Below, one piece after another: positions 5,801 to 63,870 of a DNA stretch of 64,000 nucleotides (position 1 is the stretch's first letter; each line of letters opens with the position of its first letter). The DNA comes from a virus, in the IMG/VR virus record IMGVR_UViG_3300044712_001062, positions 71,062 to 135,061 of that record, one strand, 5' to 3'. The notes below the pieces were generated by a model that was not told where the DNA came from, made no database searches, and was given only the letters and a program-made list of their open reading frames with translations. Position numbers and translations under genes: made by a program.

Positions 5801-6046
5801 TTAGAACCATATAAAATTTATTACGTTTACAATTGTTAGGAATATCAATGCATAAATTAGGATGTTTTCTATTGTAAATAATAGAAATGTTATGATTGAT
5901 CCATGCTTCCACATTTCAGGAGTAAATGATTCAGTAGTTACATTTCTGTTTTTTACAGCACACATATATCCAAGTATGCATATAAATCCTAATATAGCAG
6001 CAATTGATAAATTTGTCCAGAAAAGTTTGTTAATAATTTCTATCAT
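5801..6046 (-). CDS. small membrane protein with two TM segments
   Basis: Two hydrophobic stretches. Confidence 0.6.
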   Translation of the reverse strand: MIEIINKLFWTNLSIAAILGFICILGYMCAVKNRNVTTESFTPEMWKHGSIITFLLFTIENILIYALIFLTIVNVINFIWF

Positions 6047-7220
6047 AGATGTCCTTCGATGAATTCATAAACATCATCATTTGTTTCGATAGGCTCTTCA
6101 GAATTTAAATAATCATTGATAATTTCAACAATTTTAGAAGTTGGAAAATTATTAGATACTAAAGCATTAAGCAATGTATCATGTGTCTCGTAATTCATGA
6201 TTTAATACTCTGAAAGTTTATCGGGTTCAAAATCGATTATGATGTATCCACGTGGGCAATCACCACGTAAGCAACAAGATATATTCCTATAAAATAAATC
6301 ACAATCATATTCGCATGATTCAAATTTAGCCATAATTTTAATCCTCATTATTTTTCATTTGAGTTTTACAACCATTATAGTAATATTCATTGAGGTTATC
6401 TTTGAATATTATTACTTCATGGCATTTGGAAGGTTTTTCACAGATGTAATAGTTGTTTTCTTCTCTCATAGTGTCATTGCATACTGGGCATATCATGTGA
6501 TACTCCTTGGTTTTTAGAATTTTAAGGGGGTTGTTTTCAAATTTGAGATGTTCAAATGGCTATGCTGAATGTTATTTTTAGGGAGTGAGCCTAAATAATA
6601 ATTTGGTATTTTTAAATTTAGAAAAGTGAAGTGATCATATAGGTGAGTTGATCATATAGGTGATGATCTTATTCGGGATTTAAGATCAGGTGGATTGGGG
6701 TCCATTGCGAGTGATGAAAGGTTTAAGGTTTTCAGTATGGCTTACTGGATGGTGTTTTTACATGGGCATCAGCCATCAGCACAAATTAAGGATTGAACCT
6801 TGGAATTTATGAAAATAAGTAAGGGGGTTACTTATTTTTGACAAAGAAAACGGGACGCATTTGTAGTTTTTAATGAGGATATCAGCCTCCAAAATGTAAG
6901 TAGGGATTGAGCCTACGTTACATCGAACACTATGAATTAGTAATAGGTTTGGTGAGGTGATTGTTTGGTGGTCAATGATAGTTTGTATATTAAGACTTCA
7001 GGAGTTATAGTTCATCAATGAGGATCGGTTCACTGATCGACTATTAGTTTTTATTCAGGGTTTCGCCTGGACAATTAGAAGTGGAGTGAACCACTATCTA
7101 ATTACCATACACGTAGACATTTCATTTCTATTTTTTTTGTTTGTCGACATTTGGCATCAGAAAATGAATAGGATAAACATTTTTAGTAATTAATCATTTC
7201 ATCATTTGCCTAATGTTTAA

Positions 7221-7303
7221 TGGGTAATAGCCGATTTGCACGGCTGAACTCCTATGAGGCGACATCTTGAGTGTCGTGGGTTTGACTGCTTCCCTAATTA
7301 CCC
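7221..7303 (-). tRNA. tRNA-Leu(CAA), long variable arm
   Basis: Minus strand folds as a cloverleaf: acceptor GGGTAAT/ATTACCC-A, anticodon arm CGACA-CTCAAGA-TGTCG, long variable arm, T arm AGCCG-TGCAAAT-CGGCT. No encoded CCA. Confidence 0.88.
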
Positions 7304-7694
7304 AAAATTTGAGCATTTGGTTGGTTGATGTTCGATACCTCACACTTTGGAAACAGGTTAGTGTTTCATTGGCCTCTCATCACATGACCAATCCGGGTGA
7401 GTATCGGATTTGAAATGATCATGCACATGTGGAGATTGGTGAACTGACTTCCATTTGTATATGGTTGTTAGTTCCCTGTTATGTATATTGTATGTCAGAG
7501 GTTATATACATTTTGGTTGGTAGTTTGAATCTGGGAAAGTTTGTTTCTTTGATTCGTTGCTACGATACTAATGTTGGTTTGATTAGTATTTATAGTTATG
7601 GGATTTATAATTTGTTAAAATTGAGAAGGGTTATCAGTTTTGAGAAGAGTAAAGGATCTGAAAATGGTGTGATCGCTAATTAGGTTCTCCAAGT

Positions 7695-7863
7695 GCACCC
7701 ATAGACAGAATCAGAGTGTGAACTTCCAGCCCCTTCTGTTTAGAGCAGTTTGGATGGGTATGTGCGCAGGATGATCGTGTTAGGGAATTGTGTTTAGAGG
7801 ATAGGGATGCTCACGTAAACAGTGAGGGTGTGGTAAGACACATCTTCATCTGTCTATGGGTGC
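7695..7863 (-). ncRNA. putative ~170 nt ncRNA closed by a long terminal stem
   Basis: Perfect 16-bp inverted repeat TGCACCCATAGACAGA (7694-7709 / 7849-7864). TTTAAATA box at 7893-7886, 30 nt upstream of G7863. Internal hairpins TGTG-N6-CACA and CTCAC-N7-GTGAG. Confidence 0.7.
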
Positions 7864-7888
7864 AAAATAATGTAGGTATTGACTGTAT

Positions 7889-8341
7889 TTAAATGTTTGT
7901 CTGGTTAGAATTTTTGTAGTTAAGGATCTCTGAATCGCAAAGTTGATCGCAAATTGAGGTATAGTGATTTTCTCTTGGATTCCATGTGAGGGTTATGTGG
8001 GTGTTGGTGAATAGGGCTTGGCCAAGGATGGTGATTGTATTGTGGAGTTTTTTTAAGGTTGGATTGTTGATTTTGTAAGAGCCGTTTAGTTGGTTGATTA
8101 GTAATTGTGAATCGCTTATGAGGTGGATATCAGTTTCATTGGTGATTAGGTGTTTGTTATGCATGAGGTAGGTTAGTGCTTCGATCATGGCTGTGTACTC
8201 AGCGATGTTGTTAGTGGTGTTAATGCCTACTATGCCGGATGATTGGTGAGCAAGGCGATCATCTATGAGGATTACATAGGCGAATGCTGCGATTCCTGGA
8301 TTGGGTTGTGCCCCTCCATCTGTGTAGATTTTAAGTGTCAT
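7889..8341 (-). CDS. rnhA: ribonuclease HI
   Basis: YTDGGAQPNPG, TNNIAEY, SDSQL and PREN..DQL carry the RNase HI catalytic DEDD motifs. Confidence 0.93.
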   Translation of the reverse strand: MTLKIYTDGGAQPNPGIAAFAYVILIDDRLAHQSSGIVGINTTNNIAEYTAMIEALTYLMHNKHLITNETDIHLISDSQLLINQLNGSYKINNPTLKKLHNTITILGQALFTNTHITLTWNPRENHYTSICDQLCDSEILNYKNSNQTNI

Positions 8342-8351
8342 GATAGATCCT

Positions 8352-8741
8352 TTATGGTCTTCTCAATTTGTGGTTAATGATATATAGTTCTCGTCTACGA
8401 TCACATATCATGTGAATTGAGAATATTGTTTTCCCATTGACTATTATTTCGATTGGCCTATATAAACTGATGATGTAGCAAAGTCTTTTTTCTTTTGATT
8501 TGAGAGGTTTTTTGTCCATGAAATATGCTGTTATTATTTCGGTGAGGTATTGTTCCATTTGAGGATCATCAACTATTATTGAGTAGGTATAATTATGGTG
8601 ATAGAGATGTTGTTTATTTGCTACGTGATATATTGCGTATTTTAGGGGGTTTCCCATGAACTCTTTTGTGATGGATTTTTTAATGTTGTTGATTGTGACG
8701 TGAGTGATTGGTGGTTTGGTCGATATGGAGATTAATACCAT
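8352..8741 (-). CDS. hypothetical protein
   Basis: 129 aa, directly upstream of and co-oriented with RNase H. Confidence 0.55.
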   Translation of the reverse strand: MVLISISTKPPITHVTINNIKKSITKEFMGNPLKYAIYHVANKQHLYHHNYTYSIIVDDPQMEQYLTEIITAYFMDKKPLKSKEKRLCYIISLYRPIEIIVNGKTIFSIHMICDRRRELYIINHKLRRP

Positions 8742-8853
8742 AGGATCTATTAGTTGGGATGATATTTATATTTTGTGATTTATATATGGGCAATGAGAAT
8801 AGTGTGGTGATCAAATTTGTGGTGATGGACGATCTTGTGGTGATGGACGGGTT

Positions 8854-9315
8854 TTGGTAATGGGCGATCTATTGAATATGATGTATAGGATAAAGGTTGA
8901 TAGTGGTGTGGTTGATTTAGATTATTTGAATAAGATTGGGAGGTGTGATGAGTATTTTAGGTTGAAGGCTTTTGAATGGTGGATGAATGATAAGATGGGG
9001 GGTTTTGATAAAGTGGTTTTTGATAATGGTGGGATGTTTGTATTGAAGAATGAGAGAATGGTTGGCAGTGAATGGGGGATAGATGATCAAATTGAGGGTG
9101 ATGAGTTTTATAAATGGGGGATTGATGAATTTTGTAAGGCGATGTTTGTTTTTGGCGATTGGTGGAGGTGGGAGAGATTTCCTGGAGATTTGTATTTTGT
9201 AAAGGGGTGTGTTATTAGGGATATGATTGATGAATTGTGGAAAGGTGGTGAGGATTGGCTGGCATGTGCATTGGTGAAAAGTTTGGATAGGGGTGAAGGT
9301 ATTGTTTATACTTAG
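8854..9315 (+). CDS. hypothetical protein
   Basis: 153-aa ORF, rich in W/G/D. Confidence 0.55.
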   Translation: MVMGDLLNMMYRIKVDSGVVDLDYLNKIGRCDEYFRLKAFEWWMNDKMGGFDKVVFDNGGMFVLKNERMVGSEWGIDDQIEGDEFYKWGIDEFCKAMFVFGDWWRWERFPGDLYFVKGCVIRDMIDELWKGGEDWLACALVKSLDRGEGIVYT

Positions 9316-9429: not shown

Positions 9430-10158
9430 TCAAATTTCATCGAATTTTAATTTACGTGTTTTGATTTTTTCATATACGAGGCGGCGATCTTTCATGGTAG
9501 TTGGCTTTCCACAGTCAAGTCTTACATTGAAACGGGGAACATTCATGTGCATGTGTTTGTATAGTGCGAGATTGAGATCGTGGTGTTTGCGTTCATCTTC
9601 GTTTACGATGTGAGCAATACCAGTAATTTTCTTTTTATTGTGGTTATTTGGATCATGTTGGAATTCGTGCTGATTTGTTTCACAATCTATTGAGCAGAAT
9701 GAGCAGTCATATGGATTGGTTGTTTTGAAGGCACGTCCACACCACTCACAGTAGTACCAGATGGAACGATACCCACGATTATTATCAGCGCAATGTCGGC
9801 TGCAATAGATTTTCCGACCTTCTTCAATGTGAATTGAGTAGGCTTGAAAATCAGAGAAACATGCTGCACATCGTTTGGTCAGGAGTCCATCAGGTTTGAT
9901 TTTGTTTTTATTGGATGGTTTAAACCGATTGGAATTTCCACAATGCTTACAATATTGCTGATCTTTTTTATTGGTGAATTTAATTCGACCACATCTATCG
10001 CAGATTAAGACGAAACCGGATTTTGAGCCACGCCCGCATGGGGGTCGTTGATCTTCTACGATTTGCTTGTGTGCTGCGAATTTGGGATTGCGGAAGTTGT
10101 TTCGGTAGTCTTTTTCGGTTGCGAGTTTTATGAATTCATCAAATGGAATGGTTGACAT
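9430..10158 (-). CDS. multi zinc-finger protein
   Basis: Repeated CxxC and (Y/F)CSxxC motifs: CDRC, CKHC, CAAC, YCSRHC, CEWC, FCSIDC. Confidence 0.7.
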   Translation of the reverse strand: MSTIPFDEFIKLATEKDYRNNFRNPKFAAHKQIVEDQRPPCGRGSKSGFVLICDRCGRIKFTNKKDQQYCKHCGNSNRFKPSNKNKIKPDGLLTKRCAACFSDFQAYSIHIEEGRKIYCSRHCADNNRGYRSIWYYCEWCGRAFKTTNPYDCSFCSIDCETNQHEFQHDPNNHNKKKITGIAHIVNEDERKHHDLNLALYKHMHMNVPRFNVRLDCGKPTTMKDRRLVYEKIKTRKLKFDEI

Positions 10159-11853: not shown

Positions 11854-11997
11854 ACATACAAATAAGTATTGACTGTTTATATACTTATTGATGGCACACA
11901 CATTCGAACGCTATTGAGGTTGTTGGTTGGTGGTATGGTTGATCGTTTTATGGATTATAATGGCATGGTGTGATGATGTGAGATGATGATAGGCATT

Positions 11998-13920: not shown

Positions 13921-14460
13921 CAGTGATATTTTTGTGATATTTTTGTGATATTTTTTTTTCGATTTTTTCAAGTGTTACGAATGTGAGATTTTTCACATCA
14001 CAATTTTTCCAGTGATGTTGGTGTTACGAATGTCCAGGTTAGTGTTATCACAATTTGTTCAGTGATATCACAAAATAGTGTTATGGATTTGATGATTGGT
14101 GTTACTGTGATGTGGGTTTGTATGTGGTGATGTTAGATCGGCGGGTTAATAGTGGGGGGATTGACGAATGGTTGGTGATGTGGGGTTAGTGATATCACTG
14201 GGAATAAAAAACGGGGCGGTAGCGGTGGGTAATACATGAAAGCTGGTGTATATAAATCAATCCCAATATTTTCCAATTTTATCAACCGAAAATTTAATCA
14301 ACCAAAAAAACATATTAAAAATTACACCCATAAAATTTCAAAATTACATCCACACCTCCATTAAATTTTATCAAACGAAAAATCTACCCAACCCCCTCCT
14401 ATTTTTATCAAACGAAAAAATTAACTTTGATACCATCATTCATTCTATCAAACGAAACTT
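13921..14460. repeat. iteron-like repeat cluster at the strand-skew switch (putative replication origin or genome-end region)
   Basis: More than 10 GTG(A/T)TAY motifs in 13921-14200, including GTGTTACGAATGT x2 and palindromic AGTGATATCACT. TATCAA(A/C)CGAAA x4 at ~14280, 14369, 14406 and 14446. The + strand flips from G/T-rich to C/A-rich at ~14230. Confidence 0.6.
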
Positions 14461-22820: not shown

Positions 22821-24500
22821 ATGGCTCTCCCAGAGTATAATGAGGTTGAATTTATGTCTGAAACAAAATCGAAGCGTAGACAACGCTATAAATTTTCTGC
22901 AGCCTCCAATCGAACGCCAAACAAATTGCCAACGCAATCTTTTACTCGTCCGTGCGTATCGGGAGTCGCTGTTCATCAGGCAAATTCATCTAATTTCGTT
23001 AATTTTTTAAACGGCATATCGGACTTCGCGAATGAGCCAAAAGACGATCTTCTCGAACACATGTATACCATGGAACCCGAGATCGCAAGTGCAGTGGACA
23101 GTTTCGCACTTATGGTTCGCGAATCCTTTAAATACTTTGATGTAATTAACGATACAGAATTAGATAATTTGCCAGACAAATTAGAAATTGACGATCAAAC
23201 ATTTGATTTCTCCAAGGCCAATAACAAATTACTTCGTGAAATGGTAGATGTCGCCAATAAACTTTCCAAGGAACTTGACATCAAAAATCTATACGAAATT
23301 TATGCATCAGTATTGTTCATGCATGGGAATCTATTCCTTAAAATCAACAAAAACTTATCATTAACAGTCCTTCCAAATGATCGCGTAACAGTATTAGACA
23401 CCCTCAACCGCCTGCAGGATTCAGCAAGTGGTAATACAATCGACGATCTCATGATGCAGGCTAATTTCCTCGTTGTTGATGAAAATTTAGACACCCAGAA
23501 AATCTACAACAAAGGCGAGTTCATCATCATCAGATTCCGCGACACCCCACTCTATGTTGAAGACTCTAAAGGCCGAGTAACCTACGGAATATACGGTGTT
23601 TCGCCACTTCGACGCACTATCATCCCAGTATGGTATAAGCGTATTATTATGGCCAATGACGCACTCTGGCGATACCGAAACGTCCCACGCCTGCACGTAC
23701 AATTGGCAGCCGAATCATTCAATTCGTTGAACTTCCAGGGAAATCCAGAACTTCGCCGCCAAAAAGCCGAAGGTGCAGCAACATCCGCATTATCACAGCA
23801 AGCCGCTGTAATGGAAGAACAAGGCCCCGATCAAGCATTCATCACATTGGACACCACTAAAATTTCCACGGTGGACGCTAATTCCGGCGGATATATGCAA
23901 GCAAATGAACTTCTAAACCAAGTTAATGAATCTATATTTTCAGCCGTTAATATGCCCGTCTCGATCATCAAGGGAGTTTCATCATCCAATTATGCAAGTG
24001 AACTTGTGATATACGCACATGCAAGCATAAAAGTTGCCCAAATCGCTGATAAAATTTCCCGAGTAATCCTCAAGATCATGAAGGAAAGACTTCGTCTTAT
24101 CAACCCATCATATCCAGTTGAATTCCTCGAATGCAATATAAGCGCAGACATCAGTGCAAACCCACTTGACAACCTCAAAAAGGCTCAATTCAAATACGCA
24201 ATGTCTGGATGCTACACAGAAACCGAAATACGACGAACTACCGGTGATAAACCCCTTACCGAAGAACAAAAGAATTCCAGCGAACTCATCAAGAAGTTCG
24301 AAGCAGAAGTCAAAAATCTCAACACAAAACAAACAACATTTGCTGATTACAACACACCTGGTGGAAATTCCAATGGGCAAACATCATACCCAACCACCTC
24401 TCATAGCGCTGACAAACAACCAACAGACACCGCACAAGCCGTCATCAACAAAGGGGCCAACAGCAAAATAAACGAAAAAACCGGAATGAAACCCATCTAA
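22821..24500 (+). CDS. portal protein
   Basis: Follows TerL; 559 aa; HGNLF, YGIYGVSPL and SSNYAS portal-type motifs. The start may be 22854. Confidence 0.85.
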   Translation: MALPEYNEVEFMSETKSKRRQRYKFSAASNRTPNKLPTQSFTRPCVSGVAVHQANSSNFVNFLNGISDFANEPKDDLLEHMYTMEPEIASAVDSFALMVRESFKYFDVINDTELDNLPDKLEIDDQTFDFSKANNKLLREMVDVANKLSKELDIKNLYEIYASVLFMHGNLFLKINKNLSLTVLPNDRVTVLDTLNRLQDSASGNTIDDLMMQANFLVVDENLDTQKIYNKGEFIIIRFRDTPLYVEDSKGRVTYGIYGVSPLRRTIIPVWYKRIIMANDALWRYRNVPRLHVQLAAESFNSLNFQGNPELRRQKAEGAATSALSQQAAVMEEQGPDQAFITLDTTKISTVDANSGGYMQANELLNQVNESIFSAVNMPVSIIKGVSSSNYASELVIYAHASIKVAQIADKISRVILKIMKERLRLINPSYPVEFLECNISADISANPLDNLKKAQFKYAMSGCYTETEIRRTTGDKPLTEEQKNSSELIKKFEAEVKNLNTKQTTFADYNTPGGNSNGQTSYPTTSHSADKQPTDTAQAVINKGANSKINEKTGMKPI

Positions 24501-24590
24501 ATTTTTCATTTTTACGCGACAAATCTCAAGGCTCATATGGAGAACCAATTCCCTAACACCACAATTTTTGAAAGAACAAACGCCCCCAAA

Positions 24591-26568: not shown

Positions 26569-27519
26569 ATGGTAGATAAACATATTATAGGATCTAACGT
26601 ATCCGTTGGAGAAGGCGTCCTTAAAGCAGGCACTCTTTCACTTACTCAACTCATCGATCTGACTTCTTACGAGCAGATGGAGTTTTATGGGGCTGCATCT
26701 TTCAAGAATGTAACCAATCTTGATGTGCACCGTGAATTCACCAAGCGTCTAACTGGTGGAGTATTCGACAGTTCTGAAGGTGGAATGGTTCCCTACACCA
26801 CTGATGAAGTGTTCGAGAAATTCATTCACCTGAACAAGAGCCGATTCGCTGTCAAACTCACTGATGAGTCCAAGATTCGTCGTGACATGGCATTCCAGTT
26901 GAACAGCGCAATTGATCGTGCTGGTGAAACTTTCGCTAACAAGCGAGACCTTAACATCCTCAATGCAATCAAGAACGGCTACGGAGTTACCAAGGCTGCT
27001 TCCGCACAGTGGGATGCTGCAGGTGCTGATGTAACTGGTGATATTGGTGGACTTCTTGACACTCTCTTCAACAAAGAAGATGTTAGTGTTCGTGAAGGCG
27101 ACATCAATGGTATGAAAATTTATTACCCACTGAAACTGTTCTCACAGATTCGTGAACCAGCCCGTCTCATGTCTGCAACCTCACAGGTCGCAAGCCGAAT
27201 TCAGGTCAACACTTCTGATCTTGAATGGTCCAAGGACACCTATGGCGTTGAATGGATTGGTAGCACTAAACTGAACTACCTTGGAAATGTCTACGCTGTA
27301 ATTCCAACCCCTAACAAGACTCTCGATCACTACACCTACACTGGCCCTGACGCACCTGGCGTTGAGCGTGCCCGTGATATCTACAGTGGTAGTGAAATGT
27401 TCGTTCACACCAAGTACTTCAATTCAATGGTAATCCCAGAGAATGAAGACACTCTGAACAACAACTATCGTATCATGAGAATCAGCGGTGTATGTGCAGC
27501 AAGCACCTTCACACCCTAA
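26569..27519 (+). CDS. major capsid protein (HK97 fold)
   Basis: Position, 316-aa size, SEGG.VP motif, spine-helix-like ANKRDLNILNAI, strong GAGGTGA SD and optimised codon style. Confidence 0.8.
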   Translation: MVDKHIIGSNVSVGEGVLKAGTLSLTQLIDLTSYEQMEFYGAASFKNVTNLDVHREFTKRLTGGVFDSSEGGMVPYTTDEVFEKFIHLNKSRFAVKLTDESKIRRDMAFQLNSAIDRAGETFANKRDLNILNAIKNGYGVTKAASAQWDAAGADVTGDIGGLLDTLFNKEDVSVREGDINGMKIYYPLKLFSQIREPARLMSATSQVASRIQVNTSDLEWSKDTYGVEWIGSTKLNYLGNVYAVIPTPNKTLDHYTYTGPDAPGVERARDIYSGSEMFVHTKYFNSMVIPENEDTLNNNYRIMRISGVCAASTFTP

Positions 27520-33122: not shown

Positions 33123-33167
33123 TCCATTACCCATACATTTATATAACTTCAAAACTAATTTGTATGT

Positions 33168-33232
33168 GCCCAACATGAACAAACAGTTCAAAGCAAGGAT
33201 CTTTTTTTCCTTGTTTTTGTTTGTTTAGGATT
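33168..33232 (+). ncRNA. hairpin sRNA family copy 5
   Basis: TTTATATA at 33138, TTTGTATGTGCC, stem TGAACAAACAG..AAGCAAGG / CCTTGTTT.TTGTTTGTTTA. Confidence 0.65.
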
Positions 33233-33356
33233 ATACGGCATTGTATCGCTGAACTCTCAACATCAACAAACAACTATTTTATTTTTAATCCAAATGATAT
33301 AGCCAACGCTATCCAATTTTAAACTTTGAGAAATGAATTGCCGACAACCTCAAAAC

Positions 33357-33412
33357 TACTCTAAACAAAACAACAAAGAAGGGGTTCCCTCTTTTATGTC
33401 TTGTCCATCGGC
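33357..33412 (-). ncRNA. hairpin sRNA family copy 6
   Basis: TTTATAAT at 33441, TTTGTATGTGCC, a stem, ending TTGTTTAGAGTAG. Convergent with copy 5. Confidence 0.65.
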
Positions 33413-33522
33413 ACATACAAATATATCGCAACTATTATAAAAATGTATTGATCACCGTGCATAAAACATCACCGGCGAATGACCCTCCTGATTTTATATG
33501 TGGTAAATAACATTGAATTGGT

Positions 33523-61920: not shown

Positions 61921-63870
61921 ATGTCGTTAACAAGTATCAACGGGTTGAAACAGAACAACTGTATCCTCCATTGGCCTGGTGGAGTATCTACAGCCAATGC
62001 ACCGAAGACTATCACTGCTAACGGTGACGCTAAACAACTGTTACCGTTTCCGGGTGCTGGTATTGGGAGGTTTGATGGTACGGGGGATTATATATCTACT
62101 CCTGCTTCTACCGAGTTGAATATATTCAACTCTGATTTTACAATAGAGACACTGGTGACATTTAATTCGGTTGCAGCGTCATGTCCCTTATATGGCCAAT
62201 ATGCAGATGCTAATAACGGGGTAACCGTTTACTGGGATTATGCAAACCAAATATACCTTTGGGGAAAATCAGGGGGCACAATAAAGTTCTCATATAATTG
62301 TTCGTTCACTCCTGTAGTCAACACATGGTATCATATTGTGGTTGTGAGGTCTGGATCTGCGTGTTTAATGTTTATTAATGGTGTATCACAGTCTGTAACT
62401 ACGACAACTGCATTTACAACCCTTGCTGATATATCTGCACCTGTATTGATTGGAAATTACAATGTGATATATCATAATGGAAATTTGTCTGAGTTCCGTA
62501 TATCCAACGTAGCCCGTTACACTGCATCGTTTACTCCTCCATACCGACAACTCCAGAACGATAGCAACACGAAACTGTTACTGCATTTCCTCGCTAACAA
62601 TGCCACGTTCGTAGACTCGTCACCGTCACCCAAGACGATCACCGCTTCCGGGAACGCTACCCAGTTGACCAGCCCGTGCGGGTCAGGAATTGCAGCGTTC
62701 GATGGGACAGGGGATTATCTTACTGCCCCGTATTCAGCGGATCTTTATACAAACGGGGATTTTACATTAGAATGTAATGTCATGTGGAAGTCGTATCCTG
62801 CAACCGATGGCTATATAGTTGTTATAAATTCTGGTTCTGCTGGAAATACTGCATTGTGTTTGATTGAAACATATAATGGACAACTTGCAGTTTCAACACA
62901 TGATGGATCTGCACGTTGGGTATTTGGATCAACCGTTTCATTGAATGTTCAATATCATATAGCAGTTGTAAAAACTGGAACAACATTGAAATTGTATGTA
63001 GATGGTTCATATGTTAATCAATACACGGGATTGGGCACAATCACCAATTCAAGTGGGTTATCATATGTAGGGAGACAAGCAAATACAACAATCCCCGGCT
63101 ATTGCAATGCATATGTTTCAGAAGTTAGATTCAGCAATGTTGCCCGTTACACCGCAACATTTACTCCACCCACTCAACCGTTCCGTCCAGACCCGAATAC
63201 CAAGTTGCTCCTGCATATGGATGGTATAGGTGCAGCGTTCTACGATGCCAGTGACGCACCGGGTGACAATGGATTCACTATTCTCCCCGATGGATGCACC
63301 GTAACACCCAGTGGAACATTTACAACCCAGAAAATGAAAAATGGCAGGAATATCTGGAAGTTTGACGGCAGCACGAATTATGTGAGTTTGAGCGATAATG
63401 CAGTATGGGATATTTATGCAAATGATTTTACCGTTTGTTTTTGGATAAACTTCGGAGCGATATCTGCAGACTTTGATGTAATTTCGCAATATAATTCATC
63501 GACGTCATATACCCGATTGCACTGGAGGCAATCTGCAAACTATTTTAGGTTTTTTAGTGTTACATCCACTGGAGTAAATGGATTTATATTCAGATGTGAT
63601 TTGGCATCCCCACCAACAAATGCGTGGTATCATGTTACATTTGTAAGATCTGGATCTACTGGGTTGATTTATTTTAATGGTATCAAACAAACAGTAACTA
63701 CAGATGCCGCATTTGATACAAGTGTTACCACAATTGCTGCTAATTTACTGATTGGTGGATTCAATAATGCATCTACATCTAATGGAAACATCAAAGACCT
63801 GATGATTTTCAAACGTGCGTTGACACTTGACCAGATCTGGGCGTTGATGGACGACACATTTATATATTGA
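61921..63870 (+). CDS. LamG/concanavalin-like multi-domain adhesin
   Basis: Same three-module architecture as 59117..61132. Confidence 0.85.
   Translation: MSLTSINGLKQNNCILHWPGGVSTANAPKTITANGDAKQLLPFPGAGIGRFDGTGDYISTPASTELNIFNSDFTIETLVTFNSVAASCPLYGQYADANNGVTVYWDYANQIYLWGKSGGTIKFSYNCSFTPVVNTWYHIVVVRSGSACLMFINGVSQSVTTTTAFTTLADISAPVLIGNYNVIYHNGNLSEFRISNVARYTASFTPPYRQLQNDSNTKLLLHFLANNATFVDSSPSPKTITASGNATQLTSPCGSGIAAFDGTGDYLTAPYSADLYTNGDFTLECNVMWKSYPATDGYIVVINSGSAGNTALCLIETYNGQLAVSTHDGSARWVFGSTVSLNVQYHIAVVKTGTTLKLYVDGSYVNQYTGLGTITNSSGLSYVGRQANTTIPGYCNAYVSEVRFSNVARYTATFTPPTQPFRPDPNTKLLLHMDGIGAAFYDASDAPGDNGFTILPDGCTVTPSGTFTTQKMKNGRNIWKFDGSTNYVSLSDNAVWDIYANDFTVCFWINFGAISADFDVISQYNSSTSYTRLHWRQSANYFRFFSVTSTGVNGFIFRCDLASPPTNAWYHVTFVRSGSTGLIYFNGIKQTVTTDAAFDTSVTTIAANLLIGGFNNASTSNGNIKDLMIFKRALTLDQIWALMDDTFIY

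Follow-up and report, generated by a model that had tools for sequence, protein, structure and literature searches.

A long inverted repeat beside a viral RNase HI gene and its possible origin from the virus's own promoter–hairpin units

The stretch of DNA analysed here (the window, 64,000 nt of a 135,061-nt virus genome) carries an RNase HI gene on its minus strand and, directly beyond the stop codon of this gene, a long imperfect inverted repeat, hereafter the element. The neighbouring genes are all on the minus strand, as are a tRNA-Leu call and a box C/D-like signal (Rfam C/D matches at 7150-7213), and the element heads a hairpin-dense minus-strand non-coding region. A plus-strand ORF at 7429-7683 has no Pfam match and no plus-strand promoter and was taken as spurious. 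The features of the locus are listed below with their window coordinates and the method by which each was assigned.

7661-7664, minus strand: first U4 run past the hairpin, a possible archaeal-type stop (inferred by reading the sequence)
7693-7759, plus strand: left arm, putative remnant of a plus-oriented family unit, colinear from head-like GTGCACCC to tail TGTTTAGAGCAGTTTGG (local alignment)
7694-7864, no strand assigned: the element, a 171-nt hairpin formed by a long imperfect inverted repeat (fold, repeat search and composition)
7694-7709, no strand assigned: left copy of the perfect 16-bp terminal repeat, resembling the family head-plus-leader block (TGTGCC...GGACA(A/G)A) in alignment
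7737-7745, plus strand: family tail motif TGTTTAGAG, copy 1, inside the stem of the minus-strand RNA in the predicted fold (motif search)
7758-7803, plus strand: central fragment with head GTATGTGC, a leader like that of the plus-strand unit at 9437, 25 nt, and tail TGTTTAGAG; no TATA box precedes it (motif search and alignment)
7791-7799, plus strand: family tail motif, copy 2, in the apical loop of the minus-strand RNA in the predicted fold (motif search)
7805-7902, minus strand: right arm with promoter, putative minus-oriented remnant (promoter, degenerate head CATTATTTTGCACCC and early body; local alignment)
7810-7822, minus strand: degenerate tail-like CTGTTTACGTGAG of the minus-oriented remnant, pairing with the left-arm tail in the fold (read from the sequence)
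7849-7864, no strand assigned: right copy of the perfect 16-bp terminal repeat (inverted-repeat search)
7873-7902, minus strand: family-type promoter region of 30 nt with TATA-like TTTAAATA at 7893-7886 (position weight matrix score 12.3; family register)
7889-8341, minus strand: RNase HI gene, 150 amino acids, its stop codon inside the TATA-like box (PF00075, E 6.9e-10)

The element is a genuine and extreme structure for this genome. The first-pass annotation had described a closed stem of about 170 nt with a perfect 16-bp terminal repeat; the repeat arms, TGCACCCATAGACAGA and TCTGTCTATGGGTGCA, are separated by 139 nt, and pairing extends well beyond them to 45 pairs, all of them Watson–Crick and none G:U, so that the stem forms equally well on either strand. 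With gaps of up to 300 nt allowed, the genome has no longer perfect inverted repeat than this: nine reach at least 12 nt, and only the one in the element reaches 14 nt or more; the longest in each of 20 mononucleotide shuffles measured 12-15 nt. The predicted minimum free energy is -59.2 kcal/mol on the minus strand (z -5.49, 0 of 200 shuffles) and -67.4 kcal/mol on the plus strand (z -3.91, 1 of 200 shuffles), and after correction for composition the 180-nt window around the element ranks second in structure among 5996 genome windows. Its GC content is 47%, compared with 36% for the genome. The pseudoknot proposed earlier between CUGUUUA and UAAACAG dissolves on folding, as both segments simply belong to the main stem of the minimum-free-energy structure. 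The element matches no Rfam family even at E <= 10, and a search of the genome found no second copy. A MITE-like element was rejected: there is a single genomic copy, no flanking direct repeat, and the 16-mer has only four isolated matches in IMG/VR.

The genome also contains a family of 17 promoter–hairpin units (17 nhmmer matches, E <= 3.4e-15), seven of them in the window, which are scattered over the genome, each with its own promoter, and form no tandem array. A typical unit begins with about 30 nt made up of a TATA box and a conserved spacer that ends in ATA, directly upstream of a head, TTTGTATGT(G/A)C, placed at the start site behind the promoter. This is followed by the unit's own hairpin of 16-25 bp, with one purine and one pyrimidine arm, rich in G:U and stable in the sense orientation only, and by a T-rich tail that ends in TTGTTTAGAG or a near variant; the perfect tail motif is kept in nine of the 17 units. 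The family hairpins, with 65 G:U among 347 pairs, are strand-specific (mean minimum free energy -19.5 kcal/mol in sense versus -11.8 kcal/mol in antisense). Seven convergent pairs, a plus-strand unit followed by a minus-strand unit, occur in the genome, and the heads of such a pair make a terminal inverted repeat, for example the 13-bp perfect repeat at 33158-33170 and 33410-33422 that closes 240 nt. A role for the units as mRNA leaders was dropped, since most are not followed by an ORF of at least 40 amino acids.

The same family is carried by relatives with 61% and 45% PolB identity; the relatives in which it is seen are G001/G002 and G003, with four plus-then-minus pairs in G001. Beyond this lineage, IMG/VR searches with the family 14-mer, the 16-mer stem and the head...tail pattern returned only isolated matches on unrelated contigs; one (L017) lies in a coding region with a helicase-like motif, and others (L125-L131) share a common unrelated stretch that has neither TATA box nor hairpin. 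In 185,579 species genomes the head...tail pattern matched at ten scattered places, all of them bacterial and none archaeal. A full-text motif-string search and a keyword search of the literature listed nothing relevant to such a promoter–hairpin arrangement.

Family motifs recur inside the element. The tail motif is found at both sites listed above and the head motif once between them, at 7758-7765, all on the plus strand and hence, as first noted, in antisense to a minus-strand transcript. Genome-wide counts show that this is not random: of 11 tail motifs in the genome, nine are in family units and the remaining two are both in the element, while of 19 occurrences of GTATGTGC, 15 are in units and four outside, one of these in the element. 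The exact matches on which the earlier proposal also relied (13 nt shared with copy 2, 14 nt with 24546-24559, and an 11-mer at 7876-7886 shared with 11866-11876) are present, but each is individually at chance level. When the element was dinucleotide-shuffled 100 times, the top hit scored 26.9 bits on average and 36.2 at most, compared with 30.2 for the real sequence, and hits of at least 24 bits averaged 4.7, compared with seven. When a family-style tail was sought on each strand, it was exact twice on the plus strand and degenerate on the minus strand (CTGTTTACGTGAG, 7822-7810).

The site proposed as a TATA-type promoter within the end of the RNase H gene is plausible; it is the sole family-type promoter nearby and stands in the family register. 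Its TATA-like TTTAAATA (minus strand, 7893-7886) overlaps the stop codon at 7889-7891, and the promoter register predicts a start at about 7868-7871. The score of 12.3 is the highest in 6000-8600 and a modest match when set against the range of 9.4-26.4 over the 17 units; 25 sites in the genome exceed 12, 17 of which are family units, and five shuffled genomes have 2-5 such sites each. As a counterpoint to the remnant reading given below, the score lies within the range that shuffled genomes reach two to five times. A weight-matrix scan found no family-type promoter on the plus strand adjoining the element, there is no sigma-70-like site in 7300-8000, and the exact head at 7758 has no TATA box upstream. 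At the head position of the minus strand the sequence is CATTATTTTGCACCC, and the family head is absent there. An archaeal TATA promoter was preferred to a Bacteroidota-type promoter (TAnnTTTG), which was dropped, because the virus has a histone-fold gene, the named relatives of its PolB are archaeal and a box C/D-like RNA is nearby. Transcription of the element, putatively from its minus strand, would yield an RNA about 205 nt long if it stopped at 7661-7664.

Local alignment against the units in both orientations bears on where the element came from. In the plus orientation the left arm reaches a mean score of 24.1, compared with 17.1 +/- 1.7 for shuffled sequences (0 of 200 shuffles as high), whereas its reverse complement is not significant (38 of 200); this arm lacks both a promoter and a hairpin of its own. 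For the centre, 3 of 200 shuffles reach the plus-strand mean score and 179 of 200 that of the reverse complement. The right arm is the opposite case: its minus-strand score is reached by 2 of 200 shuffles with the promoter included, but by 104 of 200, which is not significant, when the promoter is left out. Searched with the family profile, the element gives a weak plus-strand match that is not significant (nhmmer E 0.7, 7698-7758). Motif counts and oriented alignments together place the relationship of the element to the hairpin family, suspected from the beginning, beyond chance.

We interpret the element as a collapsed, rearranged convergent pair of the virus's own promoter–hairpin units together with one extra fragment, a reading to which we assign a probability of about one half. 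One remnant would face left; its TATA promoter sits at the stop codon of RNase H, and its head and tail are both degenerate. Two others, the left arm and the centre, would face right, with head and tail motifs preserved and no promoter. Since the outer remnants would be inverted copies of each other, the transcript or the DNA would fold as one long hairpin, and the antisense family motifs in the loop would be traces of ancestry. The lack of G:U among the 45 pairs, compared with 65 in 347 for the family, fits inverted duplication of DNA and not long evolution at the RNA level. The plus-then-minus layout of the remnants is the family's convergent layout elsewhere in the virus and in its relatives. 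A degenerate eighth copy, which the first-pass annotation had named as the outcome that would count against its own proposal, comes close to this result, but the reading favoured here is a degenerate convergent pair.

That earlier proposal was a hub RNA partnering the hairpin RNAs. In its present form, which we consider unlikely, a trans-acting antisense hub or sponge RNA of about 180-205 nt would be transcribed from the minus strand and pair with the conserved 5' heads and 3' tails of the 17 family RNAs through GCACAUAC and CUCUAAACA, left exposed by its apical loop of 60 nt, and would so titrate, splint or mark them. In its favour, the promoter-like site on the minus strand sits in the family register, the only tail motifs outside the family are those of the element, and the motifs are perfect here whereas the perfect tail motif survives in just nine of 17 units; inverted duplication of a target would also be a natural origin for a regulator of this type. 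Pairing of the minus-strand RNA with family RNAs is computable in silico. In an accessibility-aware model the mean total is -8.3 kcal/mol, with 12 of 17 family RNAs below -8, mostly through predicted pairing of the family head with the loop site at 7757-7770; across 17 controls with shuffled loops the mean ranged from -1.7 to -6.3 and 0-5 of 17 RNAs fell below -8, and none of the 17 was as good. Plain duplex energies (duplexfold), which ignore intramolecular structure, average -42.3 kcal/mol compared with -29.4 +/- 2.4 for shuffled sequences (0 of 100), and RNAcofold, which is unable to put intermolecular pairs in a hairpin loop, gives a ddG of about zero for 17 of 17 partners and so speaks neither for nor against pairing. 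As a counterpoint to the remnant reading, the predicted pairing of the loop with family 5' ends outdoes that of 17 of 17 loop-shuffled controls, as would be the case for a trans-acting RNA.

Nevertheless, such complementarity is automatic given the plus-oriented homology, and nothing shows a dedicated hub: colinear plus-strand homology of the left arm and centre, with minus-strand homology of the right arm and promoter, explains the sharing. Pairing with the heads presumes a start of the family RNAs at the G of GUAUGUGC; in the fold, the element's own stem hides one tail site, and family tails lie partly within their own hairpins, so that tail-based totals are weak. Nor do relatives or proteins point to such a system. 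In the examined parts of G001, G002 and G003, all of which keep the family, no cluster of head and tail motifs was found outside the units; the syntenic region of G002 has just one antisense 10-mer. The co-occurrence to be looked for in related viruses is not seen in G002, which keeps both family and synteny and has no such hairpin between RNase H and tRNA-Leu. A search for an RT or RNA-guided protein had likewise been suggested, and neither RT nor Piwi, TnpB-type, Nop or RtcB proteins were found in the 135 kb. The fullest version, in which some 17 self-promoted hairpin small RNAs would be served by one master antisense RNA derived from an inverted unit duplication, its loop pairing in each member with both the 5' head (GUAUGUGC) and the 3' tail (UGUUUAGAG), appears a shade more doubtful still. 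In the minus-strand RNA, 25 nt separate the head complement from a tail complement upstream of it, a spacing that could splint both ends of one family RNA. If true, the hub would be a first case in archaea of one antisense RNA serving as hub for a family of viral small RNAs, and the master-RNA version a multi-RNA regulatory circuit carried by a virus, for which archaea offer no described counterpart.

A function at the level of DNA, as a cluster of three binding sites for a protein that would recognise the family's head and tail on DNA, a cruciform or a segment invertible through its 16-bp inverted repeats, is improbable. The exclusively Watson–Crick pairing, equally good as DNA and on both strands, and the rank of the repeat as the genome's longest speak for such a function, and we take the element's size and repeat length to be like those of invertible promoter switches. 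Against this, the 135 kb encode no tyrosine or serine recombinase (PF00589, PF00239), a candidate binding protein is lacking, the spacer is GC-rich and not AT-rich, and the GC-skew turn that may mark an origin or terminus lies near window position 14,000, away from the element. The source-candidate DNA run, a single assembled contig in one orientation with no variants and no joints, is uninformative on inversion or heterogeneity.

Least probable of all is an independent structured RNA gene whose motif sharing with the family is incidental, such as a leader or processing stem of the tRNA-Leu and box C/D island or a protein-binding RNA containing a tandem G.A internal loop: a GC-rich island does head the hairpin-dense minus-strand region, and an internal loop beside the 16-bp stem (5'-UGA/5'-GAU, that is U.U plus tandem G.A) is flanked by C-box-like AUGAAGA and CUGA, but this loop is without the 3-nt bulge of a K-turn, no Rfam family matches at the threshold given above, G002 has no counterpart, and motif sharing and oriented homology are far above chance. 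A box C/D sRNA or K-turn proper (RUGAUGA plus CUGA) was rejected on the same loop, and there is no Rfam C/D match on the element itself.

The link that had been suggested between the element and RNase H is not conserved. Three metagenomic RNase H relatives with 55, 44 and 40% identity lie on contigs of 1-2 kb; in two of them coding genes follow directly, and the third has only 109 nt of flank to inspect. The order in G002 is RNase H, one ORF, 377 nt of non-coding DNA and tRNA-Leu(caa), and the interval from RNase H to tRNA-Leu shows neither a comparable closed hairpin nor any homology at the nucleotide level; the relatives compared are fragments of 40-45% estimated completeness. The virus itself encodes a histone-fold protein, PolB and NrdD. 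Its closest relative by PolB has 72% identity (P0122, a 133-kb contig), and the closest named PolB match is a Methanospirillum MAG at 55%. Positions 7000-9000 of the window (as DNA) and the 559-residue product of ORF 22821-24500 (as protein) had no match in a phage record collection, and single-protein IMG/VR searches with PolB and the product of ORF 26569-27519 found no relative.

Compared with known systems, the element is most like the virus's own units. It shares with them the TATA box and spacer register, an intergenic position behind a minus-strand gene, head-like and tail motifs in colinear parts, the convergent plus/minus layout and head-to-head terminal inverted repeats. It differs in that its remnants have no G:U-rich purine/pyrimidine hairpin of their own and pair with one another instead, neither the TTTGTATGTGCC head nor the exact tail survives in the copy that bears the promoter, and the motif-bearing copies have no promoter. 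Young plant microRNA genes are hairpin RNA genes proposed to arise by inverted duplication of their target, and they resemble the element in being long near-perfect hairpins whose arms are homologous in both orientations to possible pairing partners; here, no Dicer/Argonaute-type machinery was found, the host is archaeal, and processing and targeting are hypothetical. 6S RNA and tracrRNA are similar in size (about 170-200 nt), closed stem and a single-stranded complement of repeated promoter-proximal or repeat sequence. The element has a terminal loop and not a central bubble, and on this ground and the Rfam result 6S RNA was rejected; 6S RNA is not known in archaea. A tracrRNA or CRISPR RNA was also rejected, as there is no Cas gene or CRISPR array, no TnpB/Cas12-type domain above cut-off and no Rfam match.

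For the family as a whole, the nearest likeness is to the PeSLs (promoter-early stem-loop cassettes) of T4-type phages, which two reports describe as many dispersed intergenic copies of a strong promoter with a stem-loop that border small variable gene cassettes, nrdD included, and are proposed to punctuate transcription and to serve as recombination points rearranging the units (Arbiol et al., 2010, PMC2839356; Comeau et al., 2014, PMC4122927). The likeness is one of architecture only, namely repeated intergenic promoter–stem-loop units that border variable genes (PMC2839356). PeSLs have a bacterial sigma-70 promoter with the stem-loop within or upstream of it, whereas the virus units, for which termination and recombination are hypothetical, have an archaeal-type TATA box, a hairpin downstream of the start and convergent inverted pairs. 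The unit arrangement is an archaeal-virus counterpart of PeSL cassettes, and the larger picture is that of a lineage of large archaeal tailed viruses with a conserved promoter–hairpin family forming convergent pairs around gene cassettes. The element itself would most likely carry little weight: it would have arisen incidentally as repeated regulatory units were rearranged, and would mark them as units that recombine.

If the element derives from a convergent pair, a role in cis, as inferred for the regular units, can be suggested on weak grounds. The promoter and very stable stem-loop would punctuate transcription where the RNase H gene gives way to the minus-strand non-coding RNA island downstream of it (a tRNA-Leu-like gene, a box C/D-like RNA and a minihelix array), and the element would also supply the island transcript with a structured 5' end. 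Archaeal termination is not known to depend on hairpins, which weighs against punctuation in cis. Two perfect 9-mers and one perfect 8-mer have outlasted the decay of the plus-oriented remnants, which hints at selection on these motifs here.

The 171-nt element at 7694-7864, adjoining the RNase HI gene (7889-8341, minus strand), is closed by a perfect 16-bp inverted repeat (7694-7709 / 7849-7864). Among perfect inverted repeats whose arms lie at most 300 nt apart, it is the longest in the genome; 20 shuffled genomes gave 12-15 nt. The fold has 45 pairs and an apical loop of ~60 nt (z = -5.5 on the minus strand, -3.9 on the plus strand), and its window ranks 2/5996 in a composition-corrected sliding 180-nt scan of both strands. 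The internal loop beside the 16-bp stem (7710-7712 / 7846-7848) reads 5'-UGA / 5'-GAU, that is, a U.U plus a tandem G.A; AUGAAGA and CUGA, which resemble boxes C and D without the K-turn bulge, flank it. The first-pass annotation had called the RNase H gene correctly, and the TATA-like TTTAAATA is present, overlapping that gene's stop codon. Also present are the motifs of the virus's dispersed promoter-hairpin family that it had reported in antisense:

7737 and 7791, plus strand: family motif TGTTTAGAG
7758, plus strand: family motif GTATGTGC

Genome-wide, TGTTTAGAG occurs 11 times, nine inside family units and the other two both in the element; GTATGTGC occurs 19 times, with 15 inside units and one of the remaining four in the element. 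The exact matches of 13, 14 and 11 nt to which the annotation also pointed do exist, but alone they carry no evidential weight, since a shuffled element finds such lengths equally often.

The IMG/VR viral record (135,061 nt, of which the window is bases 71,062-135,061) is an estimated 83% complete. The window encodes a tail-tube protein, a histone-fold protein (PF00808), a family-B DNA polymerase (PolB), a UvrD-type helicase and an anaerobic ribonucleotide reductase. Every named PolB relative is archaeal: the first is a Methanospirillum MAG (55% identity), followed by Thorarchaeota, Thermoproteota and haloarchaeal PolB3. A rhizosphere metagenome was the sole run found to contain window DNA. 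Our reading is a large tailed virus that infects an anaerobic archaeon; TATA boxes serve as its promoters rather than sigma-70 sites. A 1072-aa protein elsewhere in the genome (62699-65917; contig L215:2699-5917, minus strand) possesses the Mtd (major tropism determinant) N-terminal domain (PF18454, E = 5e-8); despite this, no reverse transcriptase was found in the 135 kb, and a diversity-generating retroelement is not evident.

Head and then profile searches identified exactly 17 strong family units in the genome, seven of them in the window. In each, a TATA box and conserved spacer precede TTTGTATGT(G/A)CC, after which come a hairpin and a T-rich tail; for most, no ORF follows directly. The hairpins are RNA-like and strand-specific, with 65 G:U in 347 pairs and a mean MFE of -19.5 kcal/mol in sense versus -11.8 in antisense. 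Seven convergent pairs, plus then minus, account for 14 of the 17 units and bracket anything from nothing to ~4 kb of minus-strand gene cassettes, one with nrdD; the heads of a pair form a terminal inverted repeat, such as the one at 33158-33422, where 13 bp close 240 nt. The family is conserved across viruses with 45-61% PolB identity: units occur in viral contigs at 61% (G001 and G002) and 45% (G003 and L228), G001 has four plus-then-minus pairs, and the relatives' heads are similar and their tails different. The nearest described analogue known to us is the PeSL cassettes of T4-type phages, which the arrangement of units resembles.

Parts of the element were aligned locally with all 17 units, using 200 dinucleotide shuffles per part. 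The left arm (7693-7759) is colinear on the plus strand with units from a head-like GTGCACCC through the tail and beyond (0/200 shuffles), its reverse complement not rising above chance (38/200). The centre (7758-7803, plus strand) presents a head plus leader resembling unit +9437, then a tail (3/200; reverse complement at chance, 179/200). The right arm with its promoter (7805-7902, minus strand) also aligns (2/200), and without the promoter it does not do so significantly (104/200). A family promoter matrix scores 12.3 on the minus strand upstream of the element, in exact register and as the best such site in 6000-8600; that interval holds no plus-strand site able to drive the plus remnants. 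Because of this oriented homology and the promoter match, the element is arranged like a family convergent pair but departs from it in three ways: a promoter survives only in the leftward unit, exact head and tail motifs survive only in the rightward remnants, and no remnant has a hairpin of its own, the outer remnants being each other's closest relatives and mutually paired. Both the structure and the kinship are real. Not one of the stem's 45 pairs is G:U, and either strand forms it equally well; at the family's 19% rate, an old RNA helix would have very little chance of showing this. The pattern fits inverted DNA duplication or ongoing homogenisation.

All neighbouring genes lie on the minus strand, and the sequence suggests that the element, if transcribed, is most likely read leftwards, from its own promoter or via RNase H read-through; such a transcript would form the 5' end of a non-coding island:

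7400-7693, both strands: several local hairpins, the genome's most structured 180-nt window (rank 1/5996 after composition correction), no Rfam match
7304-7220, minus strand: tRNA-Leu(caa), called by ARAGORN
7213-7150, minus strand: box C/D sRNA-like gene directly after the tRNA call, from sub-threshold Rfam C/D matches

The tRNA is undetected by the Rfam tRNA model even at E <= 1, and the syntenic tRNA-Leu(caa) of G002 (62189-62271; contig L241:2189-2271) scores 48.9 bits; the one in the window may be an aberrant tRNA or no more than tRNA-like. The C/D-like RNA draws 17 sub-threshold matches to different Rfam C/D families that align box C (AUGAUGA), box D (CUGA) and the terminal stem (GGCA/UGCC), and has two guide-length segments. 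It would be unusual for a virus to encode a C/D RNA.

The most economical reading, to which we give a probability of about one half, is that a convergent pair of family units was rearranged and collapsed to give the element, which would still supply the stretch between RNase H and the non-coding island with a promoter plus a very stable stem-loop. This reading explains least well the three motifs perfectly kept in otherwise decayed remnants, and this conservation keeps alive the earlier proposal of a trans-acting antisense hub, ranked second although we consider it unlikely. A minus-strand RNA would carry complements of the family head and tail, and in a pairing script that accounts for accessibility, the predicted partner of its loop site 7757-7770 is the first 9-20 nt of family RNAs (mean total energy -8.3 kcal/mol; 12/17 below -8; 0/17 loop-shuffled controls as good). 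However, this pairing rests on an assumed, unmapped start site, tail sites score badly when structure is included, and complementarity is automatic in any transcript through oppositely oriented family sequence, including read-through at every convergent pair. Moreover, a search of the 135 kb (~17% of the genome is missing) found no gene for a reverse transcriptase, RtcB, Piwi, TnpB-type or Nop protein, integrase or resolvase. A DNA-level role for the element, whose stem suits either strand, is still less probable, and a structured RNA unrelated to the family, set against the oriented alignments, is the least probable of all.

Relatives (those of RNase H, G001, G002 and G003) bring no help to the hub proposal. 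On short metagenome contigs, genes directly follow two of three RNase H relatives; upstream of the closest RNase H relative (55% identity; L132:1-1036) is a gene with GGNHFIE, which we take to be an RtcB RNA-ligase-like motif. In the examined parts of G001, G002 and G003, head and tail motifs form no cluster other than in units. The interval comparison covers G002, at 61% PolB identity (the virus's closest relative by PolB is at 72%), which keeps the order RNase H, one ORF, 377 nt of non-coding DNA and tRNA-Leu(caa). Those 377 nt lack a closed 170-nt hairpin and any detectable homology, and contain only one antisense tail 10-mer plus a weak head-like string. Within this interval (G002:62272-62648, minus strand), GTGTAGCAAGG, a 49-nt hairpin and TTGTAACAATAATGGG come after a TATA box and spacer, an arrangement that looks like a diverged family-type unit ahead of tRNA-Leu; the antisense 10-mer lies ~60 nt upstream of its TATA box.
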